Below, one piece after another: positions 21,050-37,468 of a stretch of 64,000 bases of DNA; position 1 is the first letter of the stretch, and the number at the start of each line of letters is the position of its first letter. The notes under the pieces were generated by a model. The model was not told the origin of the DNA and did no database searches. It was given only the letters and a program-made list of their open reading frames with translations. The translations under genes were made by a program, and so were the position numbers. Location of the stretch: assembly GCF_016863295.1 (NCBI RefSeq), contig NZ_BOOP01000035.1:37952-101951 (forward strand), written 5' to 3'. The stretch is from Planotetraspora phitsanulokensis. GTDB taxonomy: Bacteria; Actinomycetota; Actinomycetes; Streptosporangiales; Streptosporangiaceae.

Positions 21050-22153
21050 ATGAGAACAAGGATGTTGTACGGCCTGGCCGCCGCGACGTTGGTCGTCGGC
21101 CTCACGACGACGGCAGGTCAGGCACAGGCGGTGCCCACGCTGAAAGCGGCGGCGGCCCCACCCGCCTGGAAGATCTTCTACGCGGGCAGGCTGACGGAGG
21201 GATACCTCCACTCGGTGGCCGCCCCGAGCCCGTCGAGCGCATGGGCGGTCGGCCAGTACCAGGACGCGAACGGCGGCCACCACGCGGCGGTCCTGCGCTG
21301 GAACGGGCGCGCCTGGAGCCTGACACCACCCGGCTCGCTGCCGGACATGAAGTACTGGTACTCCGTCAGCGCGTCCTCGCCCCGAGACGTCTGGATCTAT
21401 GGATGGAACGAGGAGCGGGCGGGGATCGCCCACTTCGACGGGCGGAAATGGCGCGAGGTCGCCTTCCCCGAGCTCCCTGAGAGCGCGCCCGTCTCCTACG
21501 CCGAACTGGCCTCAGCGCACAATGCCACGTGGCTGGTCGGAGAGACCTGGGTGTCGCGGCGCGTCCACGGAGGCTGGAAGACCACGACCTTGCCCGCGGG
21601 CGTGCGCATCAGCTCGATCGATGCCCGGTCCGCCCACGACGCGTGGATCGCCGGGACCGTCTACACCGAGGCCAGGGGGCTCCAGCCGTACACCGCGCGG
21701 TGGAACGGCCATGCCTGGAAGCGGGTGAAGACCCCGGCGAACAAGCTGGGCGTCAACGACGTGTGGGCCCAGTCCAGGAAGAGCGTGTGGGTGACCGGGC
21801 TGATCCCGAAGGGCGAGGGCTGGGTCCCGACCGTCCTGCACTGGAACGGCAGGCGCTGGAAGAACGTCAAGATGCCCGACCAGGGCCAGTGGCCGCTCGC
21901 CATCAGCGGCAACGGCGGCAAGGTGTGGGTGACCGGCGACCCGGCCGGGTTCGACGGGCCGCCGCTCTACTGGCGCTTCGACGGCAGGCGCTGGACGACG
22001 GTCGCGGGCGCCGTTCCCGCCGGCGGCCGGGTCGAAGCGGTGAACGCGTTGGCTCCGATCAAGGGAACGGCCCGTTTGTGGGGCGTCGGCAACTACATCG
22101 TCGACGACGGCCAGGTCGCCCACAGCTTCGGGCTCGTCCAGCGCGATCGCTGA
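21050..22153 (+). CDS. Secreted hypothetical protein with repeated W/G-rich beta-propeller-like blades.
   Basis: ATG at 21050 followed by a signal peptide (MLYGLAAATLVVGLTTTAGQAQA). Recurrent motifs (AWAVG, VWIYGW, TWLVGE, AWIAGT, VWVTG). Confidence 0.7.
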   Translation: MRTRMLYGLAAATLVVGLTTTAGQAQAVPTLKAAAAPPAWKIFYAGRLTEGYLHSVAAPSPSSAWAVGQYQDANGGHHAAVLRWNGRAWSLTPPGSLPDMKYWYSVSASSPRDVWIYGWNEERAGIAHFDGRKWREVAFPELPESAPVSYAELASAHNATWLVGETWVSRRVHGGWKTTTLPAGVRISSIDARSAHDAWIAGTVYTEARGLQPYTARWNGHAWKRVKTPANKLGVNDVWAQSRKSVWVTGLIPKGEGWVPTVLHWNGRRWKNVKMPDQGQWPLAISGNGGKVWVTGDPAGFDGPPLYWRFDGRRWTTVAGAVPAGGRVEAVNALAPIKGTARLWGVGNYIVDDGQVAHSFGLVQRDR

Positions 22154-22259
22154 ACCGGGACCTGCCACCGGGGGCACATCGGAGGCCCACCGGCCCCCGG
22201 TGGCACTCCGCCCGATGCGCACGCCCGGCACACCCCGCCTGACGCGCGCGCGGGCTGGA

Positions 22260-22805
22260 TCAGTGGGCCTTCTTGTCGATCTCCTTGCCCTTCGGCGTGA
22301 TGGCGTGCCAGGCGCCCTGGGCCAGCTGGCCCTTGACGTCTCCCGGCGCCTTGTCCCCGGCGTAGAGGTAGACCGGGTGGTCGTTGATGGTGAGCTGCTG
22401 GGATCCGTCCTGGCGGGTCAGCGAGCCGACCAGCGCGGAGTCGATCCCGGCGACGTCGGTGGTGGCGGGAACGGGGGGCCACTGGGCGGCGCACTGGGCG
22501 TTGCAGTCCGACGTCGCGGGCTGGGTCTTGTCCTTGTCGTACGCGTAGACCGTGCGGCCCGTGCCGTCGACCACGATCAGTCCGAGGGACGACGTCGAGG
22601 TGCCGACCGGTCCGCCCACGACGGGGCCGGGGGACGCCGTCGCGTCCGCGGCGGCGGAGCCCGCGGTCGAATCGGGAGCGGCGGCCTTGGTGGCGGGGGC
22701 CGGGGCGGCGCCCTTCGTCTCGTCACCGGACGAGCAGGCGGTCGCGAGCCCGACGACGGCGAATGTGGCGGCCACGAGACGGCCCGCACGGGCACGAGTG
22801 TTCAT
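22260..22805 (-). CDS. Lipoprotein of the COG4315-like family (secreted, tandem YxYxxD-type repeats).
   Basis: Start ATG at 22805 gives MNTRARAGRLVAATFAVVGLATAC (lipobox LATAC). Repeats TVYAYDKD and PVYLYAGD. Confidence 0.7.
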   Translation of the reverse strand: MNTRARAGRLVAATFAVVGLATACSSGDETKGAAPAPATKAAAPDSTAGSAAADATASPGPVVGGPVGTSTSSLGLIVVDGTGRTVYAYDKDKTQPATSDCNAQCAAQWPPVPATTDVAGIDSALVGSLTRQDGSQQLTINDHPVYLYAGDKAPGDVKGQLAQGAWHAITPKGKEIDKKAH

Positions 22806-22848
22806 CAGGGTGGTCCTTCGCATGATGGACGGCGAATGGCGTTCCGGC

Positions 22849-22905
22849 ATGTACGGCAAGCCGCTCAGGATAGTCCCGCGTGTACGGCGAGCCGCTCAGG
22901 GTGGT
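22849..22905. repeat. Imperfect 26-nt direct repeat (GTACGGCAAGCCGCTCAGGATAGTCC / GTACGGCGAGCCGCTCAGGGTGGTCC) in the promoter region of the lipoprotein gene, just downstream of the LAL regulator gene.
   Basis: Seen directly in the sequence. Confidence 0.5.
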
Positions 22906-23009
22906 CCGGCGTCCTGTGCCGCCGGCCCTTCCTGAGACGTCCATCTCACCAGCACCGGCCGGACCCCCGTCCGCCGGGTGGGGCGATCTTTACCGCCGCC
23001 TCTCTCCCG

Positions 23010-25880
23010 TCAGCCGACGCCCAGGCGGCGGGCGACGGCCGCGGCCTCGCCCCTGCCCGCCACCCCGAGCTTGGTGAGGATGTTCGACACGTGGACACTG
23101 GCGGTCTTGGCCGAGATGAACAGCGCGCCGGCGATCTCGCGGTTGCTCCGGCCCTCCGCGATCAGGCGGAGCACCTCGCGCTCCCGCGGAGTCAGCCCGA
23201 ACGAGTCGTCCCCGGATCGCGGGCCGATCGACACGCGAACGCGGCGGGCCCGGGTCTCGATCTCCTCGAGCAGCGGCTGCGCGCCGACCGAGTGGGCCAG
23301 CTCGGCCGCACGGTGGAGCCGGGCCGCCGCGTCCTCCTTGCCTGCGGCCTCCGCCGCGCGGAGCAGCGCGTAGGCCTCCGAGTACGGTTCGCCCAGCGCC
23401 TTCCATTCCGCGGCCGCGGCGTCCCACTCGCTCTGGCTGGAACGGCCTTCGGCCCGCGCGGCCTCGGCGTGGAACACGAGGGCGTAGGCCTGCTGGATGC
23501 GGACGCGCACGGGCGTCCTGGACGCCTGCCCGCGCAGCTCGCCCAGCAGCCCGGCCGCGCGTTCTCCGCCCGCCTCGGCGCAGGCGCGTGCGGCGCTCGC
23601 CAGCACCGGCCAGCCGTACCGGGGGCTGGCGCAGAGGCAGAGCTCCTTCAGCACGTAGTCGACGACGTCGAGAGCGCCCGGCAGGTCGCCCTGGGCGACG
23701 CGGAGGTCCATCCGCAGCCGCTCGGGCGGGAAGAAGTCCTGGACGAGTGAGGAGGAGGACGCCCGCACCGTGTCGAGGGCGGCCACCGCGTCGGCGGCGG
23801 CGTCGAGGTCGCCGCGCGCCACCGCGACGCACCCGATCAGCCAGTGCAGCGAGATCCGGGTCAGCCGGGGAGGCGACAACTCCAGCGCGTGCTCGACCAG
23901 CTCGAGGACCTCGTCCCAGCAGCCGAGCGCGAACAGCGGCTCCGCCAGGTTCATCGTGAGGAACGAGCCTGACGTGCGGGCCTGGCCGTGCCGGCCCGCG
24001 GCCTCGATGCCCCGCCGCGCCGCGGCCGCGGCGCGTTCGTGCTCGCCCATCCCCTCGAGGACGTGCGCCTCGTTGGTCGCCACCCTGAGCAGCACGGAGT
24101 CGGCGGCCCCGCGCTCGGAGACCCGTACGGCCTCCGCCAGGGCGGCCACGTGCCGCTCCGCGTCCCCTTCGTCGAAGTCGCACCCGGCGAGCGTGATGAG
24201 CGCGTGGGCCTCGACGGTGGCGTCGCCCACCGCGCGGGCCATGGCCAGCGCCTCCGCGGCGAGGGCGCGGGCCTCGTCCCGGCCCGACGGCATCAGGTAG
24301 AGCCGCTGTGCCAGGGTGGACAACACCCGCGCCCGGGGCAGGCTGGGCGGGTGCGCGGGCACCAGCCTGGCCGCCTCGTGCAGGTCGTCGAGAACCGTGG
24401 CGTCCCCCAGCTTGATCTTGATCCTGGCCCGCTGTTCGAGGATTCCCGCGGCGCGCACCGGGTCGTCGATCTCCCTCAGCGCCTCCCGGGCGTACGCGAT
24501 CCCCCGATCGGTCTCGCCCGCCACGTTGGCCGCCTCGATCGCCGCCTCCAGCACCGACGTGTGGTCGACCCCGAGACGCTCCTGCGCGTCCGGCACCTTC
24601 TTCCACAGGTCGAGGACGCGGTCGAGCATCTGCAGCGACTCGGTGGAGGCGGCCGCCTCCTTCGCGACCCACGCGGCCTTCCACGCGCTGACCAGCGCCC
24701 CGGTGTCGTCGTGCACGGAGTACCAGTGGAAGGCCAGCGCCGCGGGCGCGCGGCCCGGCGGCACCAGGGACGGGTCGGCCTCGAGGGCCTCGGCGAACCT
24801 GGCGTGGCTGCGGGCGTGCTCGCCCGGCAGCAGGTCGCCGTGGACCGCGTCGCGCAGCAGGGCGTGCCGGAAGGAGTACGCCTCACCGTCCACGACCACG
24901 ACGTTGCCGGAGACCGCCGGCCGGAGCACCCGTGACAGGGCGGCGTCGTCGAGCCCGCTGACCGCCGCGAGCAAGGCGTGCTCGACCCGGGCGCCTCCCG
25001 CACTGGCCAGCCGCAGGATCTCCTGGGTCTCCTCGGGAAGCTTGTGCACGGCTCCGAGCATGAGATCGCGCAGCGACTCGGGCAGTTCGCCCTCGATCCT
25101 GCCGTCGCCGAGCAGTGCCTCGACGAACAGCGGGTTGCCCTCGCTGCGCTCGTAGATCCGGTCGAGCAGCCGCGGGTCGAGCTCGCGGCCGAGGATGCTG
25201 CGCGCCTGTTCCGCGACCGCCCGGCGGGGCAGGCGGTCGAGCTCGAGCCTGCGCACCCAGGGGATCCGGTCGAGGTCGGCGACCAGCGGCCGGAGCGGAT
25301 GCGTGCGGTGCAGTTCGTCCGACCGGAAGGCGACGATCGCCAGGACTCCGGGAGGCAGGTTGCCGATCAGGTAGCTGAGCAGGTCGCGGGTCGAGCGTTC
25401 CGCCCACTGCGCGTCCTCGATGACCAGGATCACCGGCCTGTCCTCGGCCAGCCGCTCGAAGAGCAGCAGGACGTGGTCGAACAGGCGCGTCCTGGCCGTC
25501 GACGTGCCGGACTCGGTGTCCGGCTCGCCGAACTCGGGGAGCAGGCGGGCGAGCCCACGGGGCGAGCCGCCGGGCAACAGCGCGGTGACCCCCTCCACGC
25601 CGATCTGCCTGACGAGCCGGCGGAGCACGCCGCTGAAGGGCGCGTACGGCAGGCCCTCCGCGCTGATCTGGTGGCAGGCGCCGATCAGCGCCAGCGCCCC
25701 CTCCGCCCCCCTGCGCTGCCGGACCCGTTGCAGGAACTCCCTGATCAGCCTGCTCTTCCCGACGCCCGCCTCGCCCCCGACGAGCAGCGCCGTGGGAAGC
25801 TCCTCCATGGCCGCGTCGAGGAAGGCGAGCTCACCGGAGCGCCCCACCAGAGTCGAACTAATCCCCCGAGTAGCTGACAC
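23010..25880 (-). CDS. LAL-family (large ATP-binding LuxR; STAND NTPase + TPR-like + C-terminal LuxR HTH) transcriptional regulator.
   Basis: Walker A (GGEAGVGKSRL). C-terminal LuxR HTH (TPREREVLRLIAEGRSNREIAGALFISAKTASVHVSNILTKLGV). 956 aa. Starts only 26 nt downstream of the giant ATPase gene. Confidence 0.9.
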   Translation of the reverse strand: MSATRGISSTLVGRSGELAFLDAAMEELPTALLVGGEAGVGKSRLIREFLQRVRQRRGAEGALALIGACHQISAEGLPYAPFSGVLRRLVRQIGVEGVTALLPGGSPRGLARLLPEFGEPDTESGTSTARTRLFDHVLLLFERLAEDRPVILVIEDAQWAERSTRDLLSYLIGNLPPGVLAIVAFRSDELHRTHPLRPLVADLDRIPWVRRLELDRLPRRAVAEQARSILGRELDPRLLDRIYERSEGNPLFVEALLGDGRIEGELPESLRDLMLGAVHKLPEETQEILRLASAGGARVEHALLAAVSGLDDAALSRVLRPAVSGNVVVVDGEAYSFRHALLRDAVHGDLLPGEHARSHARFAEALEADPSLVPPGRAPAALAFHWYSVHDDTGALVSAWKAAWVAKEAAASTESLQMLDRVLDLWKKVPDAQERLGVDHTSVLEAAIEAANVAGETDRGIAYAREALREIDDPVRAAGILEQRARIKIKLGDATVLDDLHEAARLVPAHPPSLPRARVLSTLAQRLYLMPSGRDEARALAAEALAMARAVGDATVEAHALITLAGCDFDEGDAERHVAALAEAVRVSERGAADSVLLRVATNEAHVLEGMGEHERAAAAARRGIEAAGRHGQARTSGSFLTMNLAEPLFALGCWDEVLELVEHALELSPPRLTRISLHWLIGCVAVARGDLDAAADAVAALDTVRASSSSLVQDFFPPERLRMDLRVAQGDLPGALDVVDYVLKELCLCASPRYGWPVLASAARACAEAGGERAAGLLGELRGQASRTPVRVRIQQAYALVFHAEAARAEGRSSQSEWDAAAAEWKALGEPYSEAYALLRAAEAAGKEDAAARLHRAAELAHSVGAQPLLEEIETRARRVRVSIGPRSGDDSFGLTPREREVLRLIAEGRSNREIAGALFISAKTASVHVSNILTKLGVAGRGEAAAVARRLGVG

Positions 25881-25906
25881 AAGGTAAGGATGCCATCAAA
25901 GGTCTC

Positions 25907-28900
25907 TCATTCGGGGCCGGCCGCCCGTTCGATCGCCTTCTCCACCCCGCCCACCCGGTCGGCGAGCAGGCCGATGGCGCCGACGGCCCGGGTCACCGGG
26001 TCGTCCCCGTCCCCGCCGAGGGCCTTCGAGCGCAGGTAGGCGGACTTCACCTCGGCCCAGCGCTCGGCCTGGCCGGGTGTCATCGTGCCGCGCAGCTCAG
26101 CCAGCTTGAGCAGGTTGGCCTCGGCCCCGGAGGTGAGCGTCTGGGCCTCCCCCAGGTAGTGGTCGTTGATCACCGCCTGGAGTTCGGCCTCGTTCATGAT
26201 CGGGATGATCCGCTCGGCCAGCTTGTTCATGTTCCGGTACGACCCCTGGAGCTGGAAGGGCGGCTCGGTCCTGGAGGCGTCCGCCTGGGCCGCCGAGGCG
26301 ATGTACGCCTGGTTGACGGACAACACGATCTCCTGGACCCGCAGCAGCTTGGCCAGCACCGCGACGATCTGGTCGAGCTCGACCTTCGAGTACGGATGGC
26401 TCAACTGGTCGGCGCGCACTCCCGAGTCGCCCCGGGCCAGCCGTACGAGCGACTCGACGTCGCCGCGGTCGCGTGTCGACAGCGGCGCGAGAACGGGGTT
26501 GGAAGTCAGCGCGTTCTCGATGTAGCTGAGCGCGAACAACTCCTCCTTGCCCGACAACACGTCGCCGAGGTTCCACACGTCGGCCCGGTTGGCGAGCATG
26601 TCGGGGATGCGGAAGCGCCTGCCCGCCTCGGTGTACGGGTTGCCCGCCATGCAGACGGCGAAGCGCTTGCCGCGCAGGTCGTAGGTGCGGGTCCGGCCGT
26701 TCCAGACGCCCTCCATGCGGCGCTGGGCGTCGCACAACGAGATGAACTTCTGCAGCAGTTCGGGAGAGGTGTGCTGGATGTCGTCGAGGTAGAGCAGCAC
26801 GTTGTTCGAGCACTCCAACGCGAACGAGACCTTCTCGATCTCCTGCCGCGCGGTGGCGTCCGGAGCCTGGGCCGGATCGAGCGAGGTGACCGCGTTCCCC
26901 AGCGCCGGGCCGTTGACCTTCACGAAGACCAGGCCGAGCCGGCTCGCGACGTACTCCATCAGCGTCGTCTTGCCGTACCCCGGCGGGGAGATCAGCAGCA
27001 GCAGGCCCATCTGGTCGGTGCGCTTGGCGTCTCCCGCCGCGCCCAGCTGCTTGGCGAGGTTGTCGCCGATGAGCGGCAGGTAGACCTCGTCGAGCAGCCG
27101 GTTGCGCACGAACGCGCTCATCACCGAGGGCTTGTACTCCTCGAGCCGCAGCCGCGCCCGCTCACGCTCGACCAGTTCGCCTCGCCGCCGCTGATAGGCG
27201 CGGTAGGCGGGCACCCGCTCGGTGCGGAAGCGCCGGGTGCGGGCGAGCACCTCGTCGAGGCGCAGGTCGAGGCTCCGCCCGGTCAACCGGGGATGCGTGC
27301 CCAGCAGGTTCTCGACGGTGGCCGTCAGGGCCGCCGACGAGTCGTGCCGCGGCAGGTCGCACAGCTGCACGGCGACGGCCTCGGCCAGATCTCCCGCCTG
27401 TACGGCCGGCCGTCCGCCGGAGGCGTCGAGGTAGGCCCCGAGCCAGGCGTCGACCAGCTGGTGGCGGGCTCTCAGGTCGTCGCCGAGTGCCCGCAGATCG
27501 GATTCGAGCTCCCTCGCGGAACCGCCGAGCGCCCCCCGGAAACCGTCGAGGAGGCCTCTGGCGGCGGCGCTCGTGACGAAACCGGTGGGCGTGCTCGACA
27601 ACTCCTCGAAGAGGTACTCCCCCGCGAGGCCGGTCTCGCGGCCCGGCAGTCCCGCGCCGCGCAGGAAGGCGTCCACGGCCGAGCCCAGCTCCGCGTGCAT
27701 CTCACCGACGGCGGAGCTCCCGCGGAACATGGCCCGGGCCCTGGCCAGGGAACGGGCGCGCGTCGTCCACGTGGCGCGGGTGGCCTCCTCGGCGCCGAAC
27801 GCCCAGAACAGCTGCGCGGCGGCACGTGCCTCCGGCGGGTAACGCAGCAGGCCGGCGCCGGCGTGGAGGCGTAGCAGAGCGTCGAGGACGGCCGCCGCGT
27901 CGTGATCGTGCACTCCGCGCTCGTACCCCTCGTCGTAGCGGGTCTCCACGACGCGGCGGACCACGTCGAGCAGTCCGCCGTCGGCGAGCGCGGCCGCCTG
28001 GAGCGCGTCGAGCGTGACCGCCTGGCCGTCCGTTCCGGCCTCGGCGAGGATCGCGGCGGCGAGGTGCTCCGCCCGGTAGACGTCGGCGGACTCCGAGACG
28101 AGCAGCTGGTCCCAGAACGGCCGGGTGGCGTCGAAGGACTCGTCGCCGACCGGCGCCCGGTAGTCGGTCCCGGTGATCGCGAACGCCATCCGCTCGTCCA
28201 GCGGGACGAGCGTGAGGTCGAGCGGCTGCGTGTTGACGGCGAAGCGGTGCCGGCCGAGCCGGATGGTCTCGCCGCCGTCGGCGTAGAGGTCGAGCCGGTC
28301 GCGCAGCGCACGGCCCGCGTCGAGCCGGGCCGCCTTGATCCGGCCGTCGAGCTCCTCGGCCCTGACCTGGTCGCCGAGCTCGCGCAACTCGCCGGAGACG
28401 GCGCGCAGCTTGGCCACCATGGGATCGGAGGCGAAGTAGGTGTTGACCTCCTCCAGCGATCCGAGGCTCGCGACCCGGCGTCCCAGGCTGCCGAGGATCC
28501 GGTCGGCGGAGGCGGACAGCCGGTCGGCGCGCCGTGCGCGCTCGTCGAGAAGCGCCTGCTTGCGCGAGGAGAACGCCTCGTAGACGTCCTCCCGCTTCTC
28601 CTCCAGCCGGGCCACGAGGTCGTCGAACTCGCCGAACCGCGACTCCAGCCCCTCCAGCTGGAGCATCAGCCGCCCGAGTTGCTCGTCGCACCGTTCGGGG
28701 GTGTCGGCCACGTCGAGCGCGCCGGTGATCGTCTGGCCGAGCACGGCGAACTCGGCGGCGAAGCCGGCCCGTCCCTCGGTCGCGAGCAGCTCCTCGCGCC
28801 GCGCGGTGAGCGTGGCCCTGGCCCGGTTGATCCCCCCGAGGACGTCGCCGATCCGCTCCAGGATCGCGGTGCGCACCGTCGCGTCGTCGATGTCGAGCGT

Positions 28901-30955
28901 GCCGACGACCTCGGTCAGGATGGCCAGGCCCTCGCCCTGCTCCGCCAGCCGCTCGGAGACGGGAGTGGCTTCCGCGACGGTGCCGATGGCCCGGGCCTGC
29001 CCGGTGAGCCGTTCCACGTCGGCGTGGTAGCCGGTGAACGCGTCGTCGCCCTGGAGGAACGCGACGGCCCGCCGCGCGGCCGTGCCGATCTCGGAGTCGA
29101 GGTCGGCCGTCAGCGCGTCCACCTTGCTCAGGTCGACGTACCGCATCTCGCGCAACGTCGCGAGGCGGCCCTGGGCCCGGCGAAGCTCGGCGAGTTGCCG
29201 GACCCAGGCGTCGGCCGTCATGGGGGTCTCGCCGCGGGCCTGCCGTACGAGCGAGACGATCCGCCCCTCCGCCTCCCCCAGCGCGGACGCGGCCTGCTCG
29301 GTCAGCGACTGGACCTTCTCGAACTCGTCCAGGACCTGCTCGGCCGTTGCGCGGACGTCTGCGAGCGGCCCGCGCAGACCGTGGTCGTTCAGCCAGTGAT
29401 AGGAGTCGAAGGCCCGGACGCACGCGGCGATCAGCGCCTCGAACACCGGCACTGACGGCGCCATCTCCCCGACCATGCGGACGACGGACAGGCAGTCGGA
29501 GATCCCGCGCACCAGCTCGGCGTTGCCGACGCGTTCCAGCGGGCCGGAGCCCACCGGCTGGGCCGCGGCGAAGGTGTCCGAGACGTACGGCGTCTGCCAG
29601 ACCTGCATGGGATGCACGCGGGTCGGCTCGGCGGAGGTCTCCCGGAACACGATGAGGGTGCCGTCGTCGAACAGCGAGTAGCCGTGACAGGTGATCGGGT
29701 TGGCGACCTCCTTCCGGATCACGTTGTACGGCAGGAGCAGCGTCCGGCCCTCCACCCGCGCGTGGAAGACGTAGAGCACGTCCTCGCCGTTGGGCGAGCG
29801 GATGACGCGCTCGAACTCCAGGCCCGCCACGTCGGTGTCGAAGGTCTTCGCCGTGCCGGTGGCGAGGTAGTAGCCGCCGGGGAAGATGAGGCCCTGGTCC
29901 TCGGGGAGCCGCAGGCAGGACTGGCCGATGCCGTCCAGCCTGACCACGGCCTTGGTCCGGGTGTTGAAGACCAGGTGACGCCAGTCGGCCTCGTTGTAGG
30001 GCCGGATGCGCAGCAGGATCAGCGGGCCGACCCTGGCGTGTTGGACGTCGGCGTCGGCCAGGCTCTGCAGCGGCTCGGCGACGGGCTCCCGGTAGACGCC
30101 CTCTCCGGTCTCCGTGTTGTTCTCGATCTTGATGGTGAGGTCGCCGCCGACGGTCTCGACGAACACCTCGTCCCCGATCGAGATGTGCGGATGGCGACCG
30201 AGGACGTGGTCGTCCCGGGTGGTCTGCGTCCACTCGAAGTCGTGCGACGGCGGGAAGACGTGGTCGCGTTCGCCGCGGTTGTCCAGGTAGGCGATGGAGC
30301 CGTCGGCCGCGACCGTCCACCGCAACACCCGGATGTCCTGCGGACCCGTCTGGAAGACCGCGAGCAGCCTGCCCTCCACCCGGCGCAGCTGCAGCAGCCT
30401 GGTCTCTTTGTAGTACCGGTACAGCTCGCCGAAGTCCCGCTCGAATTGGGAATCGCCGCCGAACGGCAGGGGCGCGTCGTCGAACCGGAACGCGTCGCCG
30501 TCACGGCTGAACCGGTGGGCGGAGAACACGTCCGAGACCGTCGTCTCGGACTTCAGCCCGATGAACACGTTGTAGCCGAACAACATGACCCCGTCCGCCG
30601 ACACGATGTCGCGGGGCACGCAGTTGTTCTCCGTACGGACGCGGTCGGTGCCGACGAGCCGGAGCTCCGTGCCGCCGAAGACCTCGAGCCGGTCGGCGTT
30701 GAGCGCCTCGGCCCGGCGGGCGAGCTCCTTGGCCTGCTCGCCCAGCCGGGCTCTGAGCACCTCGTAGGTGCCCGCGTCGAGCCCGGCCCGCGTCCCGGCG
30801 GCGCCCTCCGCCTCAGCGCCCCCTGTTCCTGCGCCCCCTGTTCCTGCGCCCTCTGTTCCTGCGCCCTCTGCTCCGCTGGTTCCTGTAGCGATCGACTCTG
30901 TCCCGGTCACTGCGGTGTCCGTCCCGCCGGCCTCTGTCACGGAAACCTCTGTCAC
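25907..30955 (-). CDS. Giant (1682 aa) protein: low-complexity Gly/Ala/Thr/Glu N-terminus, about 450-aa globular N-terminal domain of unknown fold, about 650-aa Ala/Arg/Glu/Leu-rich coiled-coil region, C-terminal MoxR-like AAA+ ATPase module. I recall NCBI 'DNA repair ATPase' annotations for homologs.
   Basis: GTG start at 30955, 7 nt after the flotillin stop. Walker A (ISPPGYGKTTLMEY). Walker B (VLLYLDDIQH). Sensor-1-like (VCMAGNP). Very long helical heptad-like stretch (REELLATEG...LRELGDQVRAEELDGRIKAARLD). Single uninterrupted ORF of 5049 nt with consistent codon bias. Confidence 0.85.
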   Translation of the reverse strand: MTEVSVTEAGGTDTAVTGTESIATGTSGAEGAGTEGAGTGGAGTGGAEAEGAAGTRAGLDAGTYEVLRARLGEQAKELARRAEALNADRLEVFGGTELRLVGTDRVRTENNCVPRDIVSADGVMLFGYNVFIGLKSETTVSDVFSAHRFSRDGDAFRFDDAPLPFGGDSQFERDFGELYRYYKETRLLQLRRVEGRLLAVFQTGPQDIRVLRWTVAADGSIAYLDNRGERDHVFPPSHDFEWTQTTRDDHVLGRHPHISIGDEVFVETVGGDLTIKIENNTETGEGVYREPVAEPLQSLADADVQHARVGPLILLRIRPYNEADWRHLVFNTRTKAVVRLDGIGQSCLRLPEDQGLIFPGGYYLATGTAKTFDTDVAGLEFERVIRSPNGEDVLYVFHARVEGRTLLLPYNVIRKEVANPITCHGYSLFDDGTLIVFRETSAEPTRVHPMQVWQTPYVSDTFAAAQPVGSGPLERVGNAELVRGISDCLSVVRMVGEMAPSVPVFEALIAACVRAFDSYHWLNDHGLRGPLADVRATAEQVLDEFEKVQSLTEQAASALGEAEGRIVSLVRQARGETPMTADAWVRQLAELRRAQGRLATLREMRYVDLSKVDALTADLDSEIGTAARRAVAFLQGDDAFTGYHADVERLTGQARAIGTVAEATPVSERLAEQGEGLAILTEVVGTLDIDDATVRTAILERIGDVLGGINRARATLTARREELLATEGRAGFAAEFAVLGQTITGALDVADTPERCDEQLGRLMLQLEGLESRFGEFDDLVARLEEKREDVYEAFSSRKQALLDERARRADRLSASADRILGSLGRRVASLGSLEEVNTYFASDPMVAKLRAVSGELRELGDQVRAEELDGRIKAARLDAGRALRDRLDLYADGGETIRLGRHRFAVNTQPLDLTLVPLDERMAFAITGTDYRAPVGDESFDATRPFWDQLLVSESADVYRAEHLAAAILAEAGTDGQAVTLDALQAAALADGGLLDVVRRVVETRYDEGYERGVHDHDAAAVLDALLRLHAGAGLLRYPPEARAAAQLFWAFGAEEATRATWTTRARSLARARAMFRGSSAVGEMHAELGSAVDAFLRGAGLPGRETGLAGEYLFEELSSTPTGFVTSAAARGLLDGFRGALGGSARELESDLRALGDDLRARHQLVDAWLGAYLDASGGRPAVQAGDLAEAVAVQLCDLPRHDSSAALTATVENLLGTHPRLTGRSLDLRLDEVLARTRRFRTERVPAYRAYQRRRGELVERERARLRLEEYKPSVMSAFVRNRLLDEVYLPLIGDNLAKQLGAAGDAKRTDQMGLLLLISPPGYGKTTLMEYVASRLGLVFVKVNGPALGNAVTSLDPAQAPDATARQEIEKVSFALECSNNVLLYLDDIQHTSPELLQKFISLCDAQRRMEGVWNGRTRTYDLRGKRFAVCMAGNPYTEAGRRFRIPDMLANRADVWNLGDVLSGKEELFALSYIENALTSNPVLAPLSTRDRGDVESLVRLARGDSGVRADQLSHPYSKVELDQIVAVLAKLLRVQEIVLSVNQAYIASAAQADASRTEPPFQLQGSYRNMNKLAERIIPIMNEAELQAVINDHYLGEAQTLTSGAEANLLKLAELRGTMTPGQAERWAEVKSAYLRSKALGGDGDDPVTRAVGAIGLLADRVGGVEKAIERAAGPE

Positions 30956-30962
30956 CCGTCCG

Positions 30963-33038
30963 TCAGTGCTTCACCGCGTCGAGCGCCGCCACCGGCTGTT
31001 CGGCGACGCCGAGCCGCTGCGCGGCGCTCAGCAGGGCCTGCAGCTTGTCGGCATCGGGTCCGCCCGCCTTGATGAGCTTCACCAGGAGCGCGGAGAGCGT
31101 GAGGTTCCGCACGTCGGCCGTGTCCAGCGAGCCGAGCATCCGGCTGAGGTCCTCGGTGAGGCTGGCGGTCCCGTCCAGGTACGGCCGGGCCACCGCCCGC
31201 GCGACGTCCGAGTTCTCGACGAAGCCGTCGATGCTCTTGCCCATCGAGATCGAGCTCATCAGCCGGTCGAAGAACACGGTGTCGCCGCCGACGATGTCGA
31301 TGTCGGCCTTCTCCAGCCCGGCCGCCAGCACGGCCGCCTGCGCCTCGGCGATCTTGCGCTGGACGTCGATGCTCCTGAGCCGGACCTCCGTGTCGGCCTC
31401 CAGCCGCAGGCGGTACTCCTCGTGCCCCCGGCTCGCCTCGTCGAGCGCGGCCATCGCCGCCGCCTTCTCCGTGAGGCCCTCGGCCTCGGCCTTCAGCTTC
31501 TCGCCCACGGCGGCCGCGGCCGCGAGCGCCTTCGCCTGCTCGCCCTCGGCCTCCGCCTTGAGCTTCTCGCCGACGGCCAGGGCGGCGGCGAGCGCCTTCT
31601 CCCTGTCGACGGCGGCCTCCGCGCGGCCCACCTTCTCGATGGCCTCGGCGTCGCGCTCACGCACCTGGACCTCGGCGAGGCCGGCCGCGGCCGCCTCGGC
31701 CTGGATGCCCTCGGCCAGGCGGATCTTCGCCCGGCTGTCGAGCTCGGCCGCCTGCTGGCGGGCCTCGGCGAGCACGAGCTCCTCGCGGGCCTTGTGCTTC
31801 GCGGCGGCCTCGGCGGCCTCGGCCGCCTTGATGTCCTTGACGAGGTTCTCCTGCGCCTCGGCCTCGGCCTGGATCACCAGCGCCTGGCGCGTGCGTTCGG
31901 CCTCCTCGACGACCCGCAGGCGCTTGATGGTCTCCTCCTGCTCGGCGACCGTCTTGTCCACCGCGATCCGCTCGCGTGTGACCTCGGCGATGGCCCGCTT
32001 CTCGACCTCGAGCTCCTTGTCCTTGGCGATGCGGGCCAGCTCGGTCTCACGGTCTCTGGCGATCACCTCGAGCAGGCGGTCCTTCTCGATCCGCTCGGTC
32101 TCGATCGCGATGACCCGCTCGCGGTTCTTCTCCGCGACGGCGATCTCCCTGGCCCGGTTCTCCTCCTGGACGCCGACCTGCTCGTCGGTGCGGATGATGG
32201 CCGACTGCGCCTTGAGGCGTTCCTCGGCCCGCACCCGGGAGGTCTCGGCCTCCTCCCGCGCCCGCATGGTCTCGATCTCACGCTTCTGCTTGGTCTCGGC
32301 GTCGGCCTGGCGCCGTTCCAGCTCGAGGATGGCCTCCCGCGCGTCGACGTTCTGGCGGGTGATCTCCTTCTCCTCGTTGCGCTGGTACTCGTTGGTCCGC
32401 ACGTGCTCGATCGCGGTCAGTTCGGTGATCTTGCGGATGCCCTGGGCGTCGAGGATGTTGGCCGGGTCGAGCTGGGCCATGGGCGTCTGCTCGAGGTAGT
32501 CGATGGCGGCGTCCTCGAGGCTGTAGCCGTTGAGGTCGGTGCCGATCACGCGGACGATCTGGTCCCGGAACTCGTCGCGCTTGGTGTAGAGGTCGACGAA
32601 GTCGAGTTGCTTGCCGACCGTCTTGAGCGCCTCGGAGAACTTGGCGTTGAACAGCTCCTGCAGCGTCTGCTCGTCACTGGCCCGGGCGGTGCCGATCGCC
32701 TGGGCGACCTTGATGACGTCCTCGACGGTCTTGTTGACCCGGACGAAGAACGTGATGCGGATGTCGGCCCGGATGTTGTCCCGGCAGATGAGCCCTTCCT
32801 GCCCGGTCCGAGTGATCTCGATGGTCTTCACCGAGATGTCCATCGTCTCCGACTTGTGCAGCACGGGCATGACGACGGCGCCGGTGAATGTGACGTCCAC
32901 CTTCCGCACTTTGGAGACGATCAGGGCCTTGCCCTGCTCGACCTTGTGGAACAGGCGGCTGATGACGAACACCATGCCGATGACGACGAGAAGGATGACG
33001 CCTAAGAAAACGCCCATTCCTGTGGTGATGACATCCAT
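30963..33038 (-). CDS. Flotillin-family SPFH/band-7 protein (YqiK/FloT-like) with N-terminal membrane anchor and long Glu/Ala/Arg-rich coiled coil.
   Basis: N-terminus (MDVITTGMGVFLGVILLVVIGMVFVISRLFHKVEQGKALIVSK) matches flotillin/YqiK. SPFH core follows, then EA-repeat coiled coil (AEAEAQENLVKDIKAAEAAEAAAKHKAREE...). Confidence 0.9.
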   Translation of the reverse strand: MDVITTGMGVFLGVILLVVIGMVFVISRLFHKVEQGKALIVSKVRKVDVTFTGAVVMPVLHKSETMDISVKTIEITRTGQEGLICRDNIRADIRITFFVRVNKTVEDVIKVAQAIGTARASDEQTLQELFNAKFSEALKTVGKQLDFVDLYTKRDEFRDQIVRVIGTDLNGYSLEDAAIDYLEQTPMAQLDPANILDAQGIRKITELTAIEHVRTNEYQRNEEKEITRQNVDAREAILELERRQADAETKQKREIETMRAREEAETSRVRAEERLKAQSAIIRTDEQVGVQEENRAREIAVAEKNRERVIAIETERIEKDRLLEVIARDRETELARIAKDKELEVEKRAIAEVTRERIAVDKTVAEQEETIKRLRVVEEAERTRQALVIQAEAEAQENLVKDIKAAEAAEAAAKHKAREELVLAEARQQAAELDSRAKIRLAEGIQAEAAAAGLAEVQVRERDAEAIEKVGRAEAAVDREKALAAALAVGEKLKAEAEGEQAKALAAAAAVGEKLKAEAEGLTEKAAAMAALDEASRGHEEYRLRLEADTEVRLRSIDVQRKIAEAQAAVLAAGLEKADIDIVGGDTVFFDRLMSSISMGKSIDGFVENSDVARAVARPYLDGTASLTEDLSRMLGSLDTADVRNLTLSALLVKLIKAGGPDADKLQALLSAAQRLGVAEQPVAALDAVKH

Positions 33039-33053
33039 GCGCTTGGTCCCCTG

Positions 33054-33614
33054 TCAGTGCATTTCATAGGGCATGACCCAGAAGAACTCGCCCTCCGGGT
33101 CGTAGTCGAAGATGAGGGCGGTACTGCCGGCGCGAAGGTCGTCCTCGCCGGTCTGCCGCACCTGGACGACCGCGGAGGAGCCGTCCTCCGCGGTCACCTC
33201 GGCCTGGCCGAAGTCACGCCCGACCCGTCCGGTGCGGATGACGCACATCCGCCCGACGAAGTCGTTCCGCGAGGGCGCGGCGATCGGCGGCAGGAACCGC
33301 CGGAACGGCAGCGCCAGAAGGCGGGTGAGCGACCATGCGGCGAACAGTGCGACCAGCAGGACGGCGATCCTGGCGGGCGTCCCGTCGACCAGCGTCACGC
33401 CGGCGAGGCTGACGAACCAGGCGATCGCCACCATGAGCGAAAGCGCGACGCCCGCGGGCAGCCCGCGCATCCCGATGCCGGACAGGAACTCGTCAGGAAG
33501 GTCCAGCCCGAGACCTCCGAGCAGAACGAGCACCCAATAAGCGATGACGACGACCAACATGAAGCTGAACAGGACGGCCGGAAAACCGAGCGCCGCGCCG
33601 ACGAAATCCCCCAT
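33054..33614 (-). CDS. NfeD/YqiJ-like inner-membrane protein (TM helices plus C-terminal OB-fold), canonical partner of flotillin.
   Basis: Four hydrophobic helices. C-terminal beta-rich OB-like block (GRMCVIRTGRVGRDFGQAEVTAEDGSSAVVQVRQTGEDDLRAGSTALIFDYDPEGEFFWV). Ends 15 nt upstream of the flotillin start. Confidence 0.75.
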   Translation of the reverse strand: MGDFVGAALGFPAVLFSFMLVVVIAYWVLVLLGGLGLDLPDEFLSGIGMRGLPAGVALSLMVAIAWFVSLAGVTLVDGTPARIAVLLVALFAAWSLTRLLALPFRRFLPPIAAPSRNDFVGRMCVIRTGRVGRDFGQAEVTAEDGSSAVVQVRQTGEDDLRAGSTALIFDYDPEGEFFWVMPYEMH

Positions 33615-33639
33615 CGACTCCCACCGTTTGCGTACGTCC

Positions 33640-33720
33640 CCCCTGAGACGTATGCATTATTGCCTGATAGCCGCGCATTTGTAACTAACAAATTGAATGC
33701 GAATATCGGGCACTTCTCGC
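33640..33720 (-). promoter_or_regulatory. AT-rich promoter island (TATGCATTATTGCCTGATAGCCGCGCATTTGTAACTAACAAATTGAATGCGAATATCG) upstream of the nfeD-flotillin-ATPase operon.
   Basis: Local GC drops to about 40% in a roughly 72% GC background, immediately 5' of the nfeD start. Confidence 0.5.
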
Positions 33721-33918
33721 GGCTTCAGCCCGTTGTGTTCACAACGACTCCCTCCACTCACAGGACTCCTGCCCAGCCTCTGTCAGGAGGACGAAGCGAG
33801 CCGGGCGCATCGGCGTGCCGGATGCCGCCTCTTTCGTTTCTCATGGAATCTCGGGGCGACTTCCGCGAGAAAGGAAACCCGCGGCCGGGAGGCCGCGGGA
33901 CCGGCGGGCCGCACGCCC

Positions 33919-34494
33919 TCAGGAGCCAGAGCCCGCGCGGGGGAAGTCACGAGCCTTGATCTTGGCCATGCGACCGTCGGGGTGGTGCCAGACGATGCCC
34001 TCGTACGGACGCGCGTGGAGCCAGGCGCGCAGTCCGTCGAAGTCGCGCGGCGCCGTCTTGACGTCCGCGTCGAGGGTGCCCGGCGCCCAGGCGTGGCGCA
34101 TCAGGACATGCCCGGGGAACCCGTCCGGATTGCCGTTGACCTTGGGGCCGAGCAGTTCGTAGGTGCCCGGCTCGAACGGCTCGGTCGCCGCCGCCTCGGC
34201 CTCCGCGTGCCAGCGGGCGAAGGCGGACTGGACCATGGGCTCCCAGCCGACGGTCTTGCCCGTCTCCTCGTCGGCGGAGAGGGTGACGAACCCGGCGGGG
34301 GCCGCCTTGCCCGGCTTGACCTCGCGTCGCGCCCACCAGCCGGTCCCGTCGAACATCACGCAGGTGCCGTCCCATTTCAGGGTGGGTGTCCCCGCGCCGG
34401 CGAACACCCAGGAGCACTCCGGGTTCTCCGCACGGGTGACGAACTTGGGATTGCCGTCCCAGTCGCGGGCGTAGATGGTCGGGATCTTCCTCAC
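33919..34494 (-). CDS. Minimal covalent nucleotidyltransferase (ATP-dependent RNA/DNA-ligase-like adenylyltransferase domain only, 191 aa).
   Basis: GTG start at 34494. Motif I KWDGT (lysine nucleophile). Motif IV EGIVW. Motif V AKIKARD. Spacing of the motifs is consistent with the Rnl/ligase nucleotidyltransferase fold. No OB or other appended domain. Confidence 0.55.
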   Translation of the reverse strand: MRKIPTIYARDWDGNPKFVTRAENPECSWVFAGAGTPTLKWDGTCVMFDGTGWWARREVKPGKAAPAGFVTLSADEETGKTVGWEPMVQSAFARWHAEAEAAATEPFEPGTYELLGPKVNGNPDGFPGHVLMRHAWAPGTLDADVKTAPRDFDGLRAWLHARPYEGIVWHHPDGRMAKIKARDFPRAGSGS

Positions 34495-34772
34495 GGGGGG
34501 CCGTCCTTCCGCAGGACCACGCTCGTTCGTGCCACGTCTCCCCGGGCGCGCTGAGAAACCGCGTCGGCGCCGTACGACCGGTGAGACCCGGAATGATCAC
34601 CTGATTGTGCCGCCCAGGGCAGCGCGATTGCGATTGATTTGTCGCGGTGCGAGGGAAATCCCGGGGTGCTCAGGCACCGCTGCCGGCCCTCACGGCGAAG
34701 CCGCACCGAGAGAATCCGACTCTGATCCCGCGAACCGGCCGGCCCCAGGGACGTGAGGCCGGCCGGCCGTAC

Positions 34773-35549
34773 TCAGATGGACTTCTGGTAGCTGCGGAAG
34801 GACAACGTCGACAGCAGGATCATCAGCGCAGCCAGGCCCAGCAGCCAGCCGCCGTGGACGGCGACGGCCTGCCAGTCCGGGACGTCGGCCAGGGCCCCGC
34901 GGCCGGTGTCCAGCGACCAGTTGAGCGGGTTGAACGCCGCGATGTTCCGGATCCAGTCCGGCATGAGGTCCTCGGCCATGAACGCCGAGGACAGGAAGGT
35001 GAGCGGCAGCAGGAGGAAGACGCTCAGCCCGATGATGGTCTCCCGCTGACGCACCAGCAGGCCCATCGTGCTCGACAGCGCGCTGAAAATCGCTCCGAGC
35101 AGGATCGACGCCACGATCAGCACCACCACGCCGAGGACGCCGCCGGGATACGACGCGCCCGCCAGCCGTCCGAGGAAGACGATGACCAGCGACTGGACCG
35201 CAGTGCTCACCGCCTGCTCGATGACCCCGGCGTTGAGGATGGCGCTGCGGCGCACCGGTGAGACGAGGAACCGATTCAGCGTGCCGCGCTCGATTTCGTC
35301 GATGACGCCCATGCCGGCCCACATGTTCGACGACACCGCGCTCATCACGACGACGCCGGGCACCAGGTAGTCGGCATAGGAGGCGGCGCCGAAGCCCGGC
35401 AGCTCCGCGACCTTGCGGAACAGGCCGCCGAAGAGGAAGAGCCAGATCGCGGGCTGTACCAGCGTCATGACCACGAGACCGGGATTGCGCATCAGCGCCT
35501 TGAGGCGGCGGTGGGTCATCCACCAGGTGTGCACGAAGAGTGCGCTCAT
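34773..35549 (-). CDS. ABC-2 type transporter permease.
   Basis: Six TM helices. ATGA overlap with the upstream ATPase gene (35546-35549). Confidence 0.8.
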   Translation of the reverse strand: MSALFVHTWWMTHRRLKALMRNPGLVVMTLVQPAIWLFLFGGLFRKVAELPGFGAASYADYLVPGVVVMSAVSSNMWAGMGVIDEIERGTLNRFLVSPVRRSAILNAGVIEQAVSTAVQSLVIVFLGRLAGASYPGGVLGVVVLIVASILLGAIFSALSSTMGLLVRQRETIIGLSVFLLLPLTFLSSAFMAEDLMPDWIRNIAAFNPLNWSLDTGRGALADVPDWQAVAVHGGWLLGLAALMILLSTLSFRSYQKSI

Positions 35550-36544
35550 CGGGCACCTCCAGCCCCGGCCGTGACGGGTTCGTCGGTGTGCGCGAAGCGA
35601 CGGCCCGCGTGACGCAGGTAGACGTCGTCCAGGGACGGCCTGGCCACCGTGACCGCCGCTACCGGCACTCCGGCCTGGTCGAGTGCCGCGAGCGCGATCG
35701 GCACAGCCGCCGCGCCGTCGTCGGCCCTGGCGCTGAGCCGCCGCCCGTCGAACACGATCTCCCGGACGCCGGGAAGGGCTTCCACGAGGGACCGCACGCG
35801 CCGCTCGTCCGGCGCCTCGCGCAGTTCGAGGTGTACGGCGTCGCCGCGCAACTCGGCCTTGAGACCTTCGGGGGTTCCCTCCGCGACGACCCTGCCGCCG
35901 TCGACGATGGCCAGCCGCCTGGCGAGGCGGTCGGCCTCGTCCAGGTAGTGCGTGGTGAGCAGGATCGCCAGCGAGTCGTCACCGGCCAGCCGGGCGATCT
36001 CCTCCCACATCGCGGCCCGCGCCTCGGGGTCGAGCCCGGTGGTCGGCTCGTCGAGGAACAGGACGCGCGGACGGTGCACCAGGCCGAGGGCCACGTCCAG
36101 CCTCCGCTGCATGCCGCCGGAGTACGTCCTGACCTGACGGCCGGCGGCGTCCCCGAGGTCGAACCGGTCGAGCAGTTCCGAAACACGCCGCTCCACCTGG
36201 GCTCCGCGCATGCCGTACAGGTGGGCCTGCAGCACCAGGTTGTCGCGCCCGCTCGCCATGGGGTCGGCGCCGGAACGCTGCGACACGACGCCGATCACCC
36301 TGCGCACCCGGTCGGGGCGGCTCAGGACGTCGTGCCCCGCGATGCTCGCGGTGCCCGAATCAGGCCTGACCAGAGTCGTAAGGATCTTGATGGTGGTCGA
36401 CTTGCCGGCGCCGTTCGGGCCGAGCAGCCCGAACACCTCCCCCGGCCGGACCGTGACGGACAACCCGTCGAGCGCCTTCACGCCTCCGGGATAGGTCTTC
36501 ACGATGCTCTCCGCCTCGACGGCGTTCGTCGCCGTGTTCTGCAT
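35546..36544 (-). CDS. ABC transporter ATP-binding protein (DrrA-like exporter ATPase).
   Basis: Walker A GPNGAGKST. Signature YSGGMQRRL. Walker B VLFLDEPTTGLD. ATG at 36544 with RBS GGAGGAAT. Confidence 0.9.
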   Translation of the reverse strand: MQNTATNAVEAESIVKTYPGGVKALDGLSVTVRPGEVFGLLGPNGAGKSTTIKILTTLVRPDSGTASIAGHDVLSRPDRVRRVIGVVSQRSGADPMASGRDNLVLQAHLYGMRGAQVERRVSELLDRFDLGDAAGRQVRTYSGGMQRRLDVALGLVHRPRVLFLDEPTTGLDPEARAAMWEEIARLAGDDSLAILLTTHYLDEADRLARRLAIVDGGRVVAEGTPEGLKAELRGDAVHLELREAPDERRVRSLVEALPGVREIVFDGRRLSARADDGAAAVPIALAALDQAGVPVAAVTVARPSLDDVYLRHAGRRFAHTDEPVTAGAGGAR

Positions 36545-36703
36545 GGATTCCTCCGGTCTCGGATCTTGATCATCCGAACCGGCCCGGGAAGGGGAGCCCA
36601 GCTATCCTTGCGGTTGCCACCTCGTGCTGGTTCCCTTCCGCGGGTTCGGTTCGAGGCCGGGGATCCCGGCGGGGTGTTGCAGCACCTTCGCCGGGGTCCC
36701 TTT

Positions 36704-37356: not shown

Positions 37357-37468
37357 TGGACGCTCCCGCATATTCGCCACCGATTACTCGGATGCGAGTA
37401 TACGTTTGCGAGTAATCGCTGACAACAGCTTCCCGCGGCCCGCCCGGCGCGCGCGTACCCTTCGAGAT

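Follow-up and report, generated by a model that had tools for sequence, protein, structure and literature searches.

Why should an ATPase of up to 1682 residues, filed in databases as a 'DNA repair ATPase', be encoded directly behind a flotillin? This question is raised by a locus of the actinomycete Planotetraspora phitsanulokensis, located on contig NZ_BOOP01000035.1 (assembly GCF_016863295.1) in a stretch of 64,000 nucleotides whose full length we call the window. On its minus strand, a YqiJ-like gene is followed by a YqiK-type flotillin gene, the gene for the giant ATPase and a gene for a LuxR-type regulator of the LAL group. A first-pass annotation, made from the sequence alone, had taken these genes together with an RNA-ligase-like gene further upstream for a candidate membrane-associated system that had not been described. 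We favour a narrower reading, which we hold to be likely rather than assured: the locus is a self-contained operon of the first three genes, and its ATPase, which combines a DUF3686 domain with an AAA+ module, would remodel flotillin assemblies, PspA assemblies or both in the maintenance of the envelope and membrane.

Conservation of the flotillin-ATPase unit

Two sets of loci were compared. The first consists of 80 genome loci (L001-L080), with one genome per species, that were scanned with the family alignment; the second consists of 80 more distant metagenome loci (L081-L160), ranging from 30 to 66% GC, from a scan seeded with distant family members. Only loci with enough upstream DNA serve as the denominator for the counts given below. 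In all 75 of the genome loci that could be judged, the ATPase gene is immediately preceded on the same strand by the flotillin gene, which is likewise upstream on the same strand in 62 of the 63 distant loci. The linkage, for which the first-pass annotation had suggested synteny as a check, is therefore not accidental, and the coupling of these two genes is as strong as gene-neighbourhood evidence gets. A YqiJ-like gene precedes the flotillin gene in 59 of 75 genome loci and 51 of 56 distant loci. The conserved unit thus comprises two to three genes, namely those for the flotillin, the ATPase and, in most loci, the YqiJ-like protein. Beyond these, no gene family is common to more than 26 of the 80 genome loci, and for this reason we regard the module as self-contained.

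The genome loci come from Streptosporangiaceae, Micromonosporaceae, Pseudonocardiaceae, Streptomyces, Nocardia, Frankiales, Glycomyces, Myxococcota, Acidobacteriota and a metagenome-assembled genome of the Clostridia, and identity of the giant protein among them runs from 94% down to 51%. Proteus mirabilis H63 (L164) has the three-gene form, and the unit as a whole spans Actinomycetota, Myxococcota, Acidobacteriota, Gammaproteobacteria and low-GC lineages. The ATPase family forms 898 clusters at 50% identity. Given that the giant protein is approximately 70-75% identical across three actinomycete orders and 51-56% identical to its counterparts in Myxococcota and Acidobacteriota, we take it to be under strong purifying selection.

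Some individual distant loci are arranged differently. No flotillin match is present within 4.1 kb upstream of the ATPase gene in L159, and the flotillin gene is separated from the ATPase gene by 1.5-2.3 kb in L097, L138 and L145.

Prior description and association with PspA

An operon of this type has been reported by Ravi et al. (mSystems 2024, PMC11237479; bioRxiv 2020). It encodes a protein of the YqiJ/YuaF type with three transmembrane segments, a protein combining Band-7, coiled-coil and flotillin regions, and a 'novel AAA+ ATPase' with a beta-propeller and a coiled coil. Their description, which is purely computational, covers both the operon that includes a CesT/Tir-PspA pair and its abbreviated form, reports that the abbreviated, PspA-less operons are widespread, and proposes a chaperone-like function in putting together membrane complexes. 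Neighbourhoods of the PspA-Band-7/FloT-NfeD kind were also noted by Popp et al. in 2022. The gene order and all three protein architectures are the same in the window, which differs in having no CesT-PspA pair and in having the LAL regulator gene appended; it therefore holds the abbreviated, PspA-less form of the operon of Ravi et al. From the identical architecture and context, we infer that the ATPase of their exemplar, encoded in Dokdonia donghaensis next to ANH61663.1, belongs to the DUF3686 family.

The full form was recovered around distant relatives of the ATPase, where it includes CesT_Tir_1, PspA_IM30, a divergent helix-turn-helix (HTH) gene and sometimes a PLD gene. Among the 48 distant loci with room for them, 21 carry genes for CesT_Tir_1 (PF22550, E 2e-55) and PspA_IM30 (E 8e-44) directly upstream of the YqiJ-like gene. 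The link to PspA is also seen on pQBR103, a megaplasmid of Pseudomonas fluorescens SBW25 (L163, NC_009444.1, positions 85458-101521), on which nine genes of the same strand encode PspA, a rhomboid protein, DUF2491, DUF350 and DUF1190 proteins, a glutathionylspermidine-synthase-like protein, a YqiJ-like protein, an SPFH protein and a 'DNA repair ATPase'.

In the literature searched, DUF3686 is named by no paper, nor are 'DNA repair ATPase' and flotillin brought together in any. Two studies were considered as possible accounts and rejected. The StlP paper (PMC11920096) deals with another SPFH protein, and the study of Shewanella SO1376/SO1377 with a two-gene form that lacks the ATPase.

The distribution of the module and its partners also bears on the defence role that was one of three suggested at first. 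An anti-phage or anti-plasmid system would here pair a membrane-anchored sensor with an effector, the STAND-like LAL protein serving as the sensor in the window and a PLD-type hydrolase as a possible effector in relatives. Large ATPases of patchy occurrence are indeed typical of defence systems, a PLDc_2 gene lies near the unit in eight distant loci, one copy of the module is on pQBR103, and a LAL/STAND gene is adjacent in the window. Nevertheless, we judge a defence function to be quite improbable. When five proteins of the locus were compared with PADLOC-DB 2.0, no match of any meaning came back, the only ones being a Walker-A-level match to IetA (E 0.0026) and HTH-level matches for the LAL protein. 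The ATPase occurs in only 13 of 72,556 plasmid records, which are mostly megaplasmids, chromids or chromosome-sized records, and none of 50,697 phage records has a copy of the module, which is essentially chromosomal. The identity of the giant protein across actinomycete orders looks like vertical inheritance, unlike that of fast-evolving defence genes. Finally, the LAL gene is restricted to three species, and the recurrent partners PspA and CesT are envelope-stress proteins.

The YqiJ-like protein and the flotillin

The first gene of the unit (33054-33614, minus strand) encodes an inner-membrane protein of 186 residues with three predicted transmembrane helices (residues 14-32, 58-76 and 83-101) and a soluble C-terminal domain of approximately 80 residues. 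Escherichia coli YqiJ scores 30.9 bits with a hidden Markov model built from 111 proteins that occupy the same operon position, and 200 shuffled sequences score at most 5.6 bits; on the strength of this profile score, we identify the protein as a YqiJ homologue. When the YqiJ-like alignment was set against E. coli YqiJ in a shallow hhalign run, the match was weak (7.9% probability, E 0.004), and searches of Pfam and PDB with this protein and its homologues were negative, as was a search of NCBIfam with the YqiJ-like and flotillin-like proteins of the window. Homologues carry the source names DUF1449 or 'OB-fold-containig protein', and from the latter name comes the candidate assignment of an NfeD-like OB-fold to the C-terminal domain. 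Thus, for the NfeD/YqiJ-flotillin pair proposed at first, the YqiJ and flotillin identities stand, and the NfeD-like element is a candidate taken from the source name.

The second gene (30963-33038, minus strand) encodes a protein of 691 residues. The window flotillin itself has no Pfam, NCBIfam or PDB sequence match, whereas 8 of 25 close homologues match Band_7 (PF01145; best E 5e-11), and its profile aligns with E. coli YqiK over 416 columns at 99.6% probability (hhalign, E 8.7e-24). Given this alignment, and consistent with the names used by NCBI and JGI ('flotillin family' and YqiK), we assign the protein to the YqiK-type flotillins. Its layout consists of an N-terminal transmembrane helix (residues 8-26), an SPFH domain, a helical region of approximately 350 residues rich in alanine, glutamate and arginine (21% alanine and 20% glutamate over residues 216-560) and a conserved C-terminal domain.

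The first two genes are homologous to the yqiJ-yqiK pair of E. coli, the yuaF-floT pair of Bacillus subtilis and the SO1376-SO1377 pair of Shewanella, and are alike in order and orientation. However, no ATPase gene follows the E. coli and Shewanella pairs, where yqiK is succeeded by the sib/ibs loci and SO1377 by a terminator, respectively. The flotillin of the window is also longer, at 691 residues compared with 553 in the known pair.

Architecture of the giant ATPase

The third gene (25907-30955, minus strand) encodes 1682 residues when read as the longest open reading frame (ORF), and its product is 100% identical to the protein on record for P. phitsanulokensis. NCBI places the start at V66, giving 1617 residues, and thereby cuts off a GTYEV motif that is conserved in the family. 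The true start is probably GTG at 30955 or GTG at 30940, the latter with a GAGG sequence 7 nucleotides upstream. The first 55 or so residues are of low complexity, rich in glycine, threonine and alanine, encoded by short GC-rich DNA repeats and variable between species. This variable N-terminus is followed by the DUF3686 domain, helical regions that include DUF7902, a conserved middle part and the C-terminal AAA+ module. No transmembrane segment is predicted, and the ATPase is accordingly classed, from its sequence, as a cytoplasmic protein.

The first-pass annotation had considered the N-terminal domain to be novel. The domain is already catalogued in Pfam as DUF3686 (PF12458; residues 77-520, 29396-30727 on the minus strand, E 1e-220), but it matches no characterised enzyme when its model is compared with PDB structures by Foldseek, and in that sense the earlier view stands. 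An AlphaFold2 model of residues 62-741 (predicted local distance difference test, pLDDT, 91; predicted template modelling score, pTM, 0.78) shows an N-terminal helix, an all-beta domain of approximately 28 strands and then long helices, which reach up to 49 residues between positions 417 and 679 of the model. The Foldseek matches of this N-terminal part were all beta-propellers, including WD40 proteins, sialidases, prolyl-oligopeptidase propellers, YncE and paraoxonase, with E-values of 4e-6 to 1e-4 and template modelling scores of at most 0.35, which denote weak superpositions. As modelled, the DUF3686 domain is propeller-like at the level of blades and close to no solved propeller.

The long-helix region that follows contains DUF7902 (PF25472; residues 638-722, 28790-29044 on the minus strand, E 3.8e-32). 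It had been described as a coiled coil of approximately 650 residues, and this description does not hold, given that the helical part is interrupted twice. One interruption is a conserved, apparently non-helical and beta-rich-looking segment, GGETIRLGRHRFAVNTQPLDLTLVP...TGTDY, at approximately residues 893-936. The other is an EGYxRGVHDxDA motif at residues 1009-1020 (27850-27930, minus strand), in which Y1011, G1014, H1016, D1017 and D1019 are invariant in 22 members that are 31-62% identical to the window protein. This motif could be a candidate metal-binding or catalytic site.

The AAA+ core (26456-27109, minus strand) covers approximately residues 1283-1500, as judged from conserved columns and an AlphaFold2 model of residues 1180-1682 (pLDDT 89) that shows the AAA+ fold. 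Pfam matches are weak and lie at approximately residues 1319-1442 (AAA_5 with 26.6 bits against a cutoff of 22, and AAA with 27 bits). In the model, a beta-hairpin at positions 234-247 precedes the sensor-1 strand, and the structural neighbours found by Foldseek are RuvB (E 7e-7) and, at approximately 1e-6 to 1e-5, MCM, Lon, ClpA/X/B and NorQ/CbbQ. RuvB, MCM, Lon, ClpA/X/B, NorQ and CbbQ all belong to the AAA+ group that carries a hairpin before sensor 1. The first-pass annotation had called the module MoxR-like. With MoxR proteins (RavA, CbbQ and NorQ) it does share an AAA+ core with an insertion hairpin, a borderline AAA_5 match and the presence of NorQ/CbbQ among its structural neighbours, but its resemblance to MoxR does not exceed that to RuvB, MCM, Lon or Clp. 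Moreover, its size and N-terminal architecture are entirely unlike those of MoxR proteins, and there is no VWA gene in the neighbourhood. Motifs conserved across the family include the Walker A sequence SPPGYGKTT, the sensor 1 sequence MAGNPYTE and the invariant arginines R1457 and R1574. Walker B reads LYLDDIQH throughout the family, with Asp-Asp in place of Asp-Glu, which suggests that hydrolysis may be slow or regulated.

These features can be set against the database label. If it were right, DNA would be what the protein acts on, and the flotillin gene next door would be either incidental or a sign that the nucleoid is tethered to the membrane. The label itself was correctly given in the first-pass annotation: NCBI product names of homologues do read 'DNA repair ATPase', and the description of PF12458 agrees. 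RuvB is the closest AAA+ structure, and the DDIQ sequence of Walker B is one that we take to be DnaA-like. However, RuvB does not stand out in similarity from Lon, Clp, MCM or MoxR. In the protein, neither a DNA-binding nor a nuclease domain was detected, and there are no repair genes nearby and no publication behind the label. Given also that the invariant partner is a membrane scaffold, we consider a function in DNA repair to be very improbable.

Operon signals and neighbouring genes

The ORF coordinates confirm the compact arrangement that had been noted at first, in which the YqiJ-like, flotillin, ATPase and LAL genes lie head to tail with gaps of 15, 7 and 26 nucleotides. GC content at third codon positions is 0.89-0.96 in all four, as is typical of coding sequence. 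An AT-rich island, proposed at first as the promoter, is indeed present upstream of the YqiJ-like gene: GC content falls to 0.58 at 33500-33799, compared with approximately 0.72 elsewhere, and the island contains the sequence GTTACA-18-AATAAT (33656-33685, minus strand), approximately 40 nucleotides upstream of the YqiJ-like start codon. This promoter candidate is the sole sigma-70-like match within the 12.5 kb from 22500 to 35000, where 0.2 would be expected by chance. Its -35 element is overlapped by the palindrome ATTTGT-N5-ACAAAT (33670-33700), which is retained in P. kaengkrachanensis and, in part, in P. thailandica.

In a scan of the same 12.5 kb for terminators, which the earlier annotation had named as a way to separate the genes, no strong terminator-like site was found between any of the four genes. 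A hairpin of nine G-C pairs with a T-rich tail (33878-33899, minus strand) lies 20 nucleotides past the stop codon of the RNA-ligase-like gene, between that gene and the operon, and the only other match on this strand is a weak stem of five pairs that falls just within the 5' end of the YqiJ-like gene. Given that the total number of such sites is at chance level (3 found, 3.1 expected), it is the strength and position of the nine-pair hairpin alone that lead us to take it as a putative terminator.

No RNA family was found when positions 22000-36000 were scanned with Rfam. Just downstream of the predicted -10 element, an 8-bp hairpin (ACGUCUC...GGGACGU) can form at 33620-33650 on the minus strand, and comparable 5'-leader hairpins with other stem sequences are present in P. 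thailandica and in a Streptosporangium. Folding z-scores for these leaders are weak and not significant (-2.2, -1.0 and -0.7), and the hairpin may be a DNA palindrome or a chance occurrence.

Upstream, the RNA-ligase-like gene (33919-34494, minus strand) encodes a small RLIG1-like nucleotidyltransferase of 191 residues. The original call is supported by a partial match to PF17720 (E 7e-9), a KWDG motif-I-like sequence and an EGIVW...KIK motif. Its inclusion in the system is not supported. Besides the window, only P. thailandica (84% identical) and P. mira (95%) have the gene near the operon, none of the other loci has it, and in P. mira a two-component system intervenes between it and the YqiJ-like gene. 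It is thus an upstream neighbour outside the unit, and from the position of the hairpin we read it as a separate transcription unit. Further upstream (34773-37885, minus strand) are an ABC-2 permease gene, a DrrA-like ABC ATPase gene and a PadR-domain ORF. Both of the ABC transporter genes also occur in P. thailandica, and these neighbours are probably unrelated to the operon.

Downstream of the ATPase gene, the LAL gene (23010-25880, minus strand) lies outside the range of 25880-34494 given in the first-pass annotation, even though the title of that entry included it. The identification as a LAL (MalT/STAND-type LuxR) regulator was sound: the protein of 956 residues matches AAA_16 (E 1e-26) and GerE (E 1e-19), with weak matches to NACHT and MalT-like families, and its orthologue in P. 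mira has a precomputed TPR_MalT annotation. The larger proposal was that an NfeD protein, flotillin, the giant ATPase and the LAL/STAND NTPase form one conserved four-gene machine. The LAL gene does share the strand and follows after only 26 nucleotides with no terminator-like site between, and both P. kaengkrachanensis (L001) and P. mira (L161) keep it at this position. However, P. thailandica (L002), Planotetraspora sp. GP83 (L162), the 78 other loci and every other genus examined lack it; the giant proteins of P. thailandica and GP83 are 86% and 84% identical to that of the window. In P. thailandica, a Lipoprotein_15 gene directly follows the giant gene where the window has LAL, and elsewhere other regulators accompany the operon. 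Synteny has therefore largely refuted the four-gene machine, whose chances we rate as minimal, and the LAL gene, rather than belonging to the conserved unit, was added recently in three Planotetraspora species. As judged from its position, it may be co-transcribed with the operon, and a role for its product in regulating the operon is possible.

The other regulators differ by lineage. A PucR-type regulator of approximately 355 residues (GGDEF_2 and HTH_30) is encoded near the operon in 26 loci, nearly all from Streptomyces (within L032-L080). In most of these, the gene is just upstream and divergent, at approximately 300-1400 nucleotides from the flotillin gene, and most of the 16 genome loci that have no YqiJ-like gene carry it within approximately 300-600 nucleotides upstream of the flotillin gene. 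A divergent gene of the HTH_3/19 type is present in 19 distant loci. The palindromes upstream of the YqiJ-like gene also vary, with GGGAA-N3-TTCCC-like sequences at approximately -80 in several Nonomuraea and a Streptosporangium and TGAC(A/C)-N5-TG(T/C)CA sequences in Micromonosporaceae. These palindromes are probably operators for different regulators and, together with the adjacent regulator genes, would fit a conserved effector module under lineage-specific control.

Possible functions of the module

In the mechanism that we propose, the flotillin and its YqiJ-type partner would together build an SPFH cage or microdomain at the membrane's inner face. The ATPase might oligomerise through its AAA+ module and dock through the propeller-like domain and the long helical arms, such that ATP binding and hydrolysis would assemble, disassemble or reshape flotillin scaffolds, PspA (ESCRT-III-type) scaffolds or both under stress. 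Given the Asp-Asp Walker B, the protein could act as a switch-like remodeller rather than as a fast unfoldase. Expression would start from the AT-rich promoter region under the control of a lineage-specific regulator.

The best-understood precedent for a functional link, at the inner membrane, between an SPFH scaffold and an AAA+ ATPase is HflK/C with FtsH, and a cage of HflK/C around FtsH was reportedly seen by Qiao et al. in 2022. FtsH is a protease of the classic AAA+ clade that is anchored by a transmembrane segment, whereas the giant ATPase appears to be cytoplasmic and has neither protease domain nor membrane anchor. It also differs from FtsH in its hairpin before sensor 1, its Asp-Asp Walker B, its propeller-like domain and the more than 700 residues that make up its helical and other regions. 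One source (PMC13220708) describes HflK/C cages that enclose the AAA+ protease FtsH, and the cages of HflK/C, QmcA-YbbJ and eukaryotic flotillin are precedents for membrane SPFH assembly.

This precedent also supplies the main rival to the remodelling of scaffolds. The flotillin and YqiJ-like protein might confine the ATPase, as HflK/C cages confine FtsH, and the ATPase might then extract, unfold or hand over specific membrane-protein clients, for quality control or the building of complexes, while the scaffold itself is not remodelled. Apart from the analogous pairing, the structural neighbours of the AAA+ module include Lon, ClpA/X/B and RuvB, the propeller-like domain could serve as a platform for binding clients, and the chaperone-like role proposed by Ravi et al. 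points in the same direction. On the other hand, no match to Peptidase_M41 or other sign of a protease domain was found in the ATPase, which is likewise without a transmembrane anchor; no canonical aromatic pore loop was recognised, the Asp-Asp Walker B is family-wide, and the neighbourhood holds no conserved client gene. We therefore regard client processing as unlikely, while recognising it as the explanation that competes most directly with ours.

Returning to the remodelling of scaffolds, a second set of precedents comprises Vps4 with ESCRT-III and PspF with PspA, in which an AAA+ ATPase is genetically coupled to a polymer of the ESCRT-III superfamily, as the giant ATPase is to PspA through the same-strand clusters of the distant loci. 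The giant ATPase differs from Vps4 and PspF in having no MIT domain and no features of a sigma-54 activator and in belonging to another AAA+ clade, and the window has no PspA gene. According to a 2025 review (PMC7619361), a Vps4-like ATPase for PspA appears to be absent in bacteria, and the review cites Scholz 2021 for an SPFH protein that links PspA to the membrane in B. subtilis. We put forward, as a tentative suggestion that we ourselves doubt, that the DUF3686-AAA+ protein fills a gap as the bacterial ATPase that remodels SPFH/flotillin cages, PspA polymers or both, and would thus be a functional analogue of Vps4 from another clade. Such a role would account for the flotillin gene that stands next to the ATPase gene in almost all genomes encoding the ATPase.

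Several observations weigh against the remodelling of flotillin or PspA assemblies. Neither the window nor any of the 80 genome loci has a PspA, CesT or PLD gene within 10 kb, and the link to PspA consequently comes from distant relatives. No aromatic pore-loop motif is recognisable in the ATPase, which, together with the non-canonical Walker B, makes the threading of a substrate doubtful. The YqiJ-like gene is missing from 16 genome loci and so seems to be dispensable in some lineages. Contact between the ATPase and the flotillin is a supposition, and co-transcription of the three genes is a prediction from their layout. Furthermore, no experimental study of any member of the ATPase family was found in the literature. 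In this last respect, the first-pass statement that no characterised system of this composition was known remains correct; as a claim to an undescribed system, it is superseded by the 2020 and 2024 reports of Ravi et al.

Implications

The locus in the window is one more instance of an operon that had already been described by comparative genomics and whose function is uncharacterised. The label 'DNA repair ATPase', which is attached to thousands of database entries, receives no support from gene context or from the literature searched. There is still debate over the function of bacterial flotillins, and the turnover of SPFH cages or of PspA/ESCRT-III polymers in bacteria is not known to be driven by any ATPase. 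The module is carried by tractable organisms and elements that include Streptomyces, Myxococcus, Proteus mirabilis and the P. fluorescens plasmid pQBR103, and the pQBR103 cluster offers a ready experimental system.

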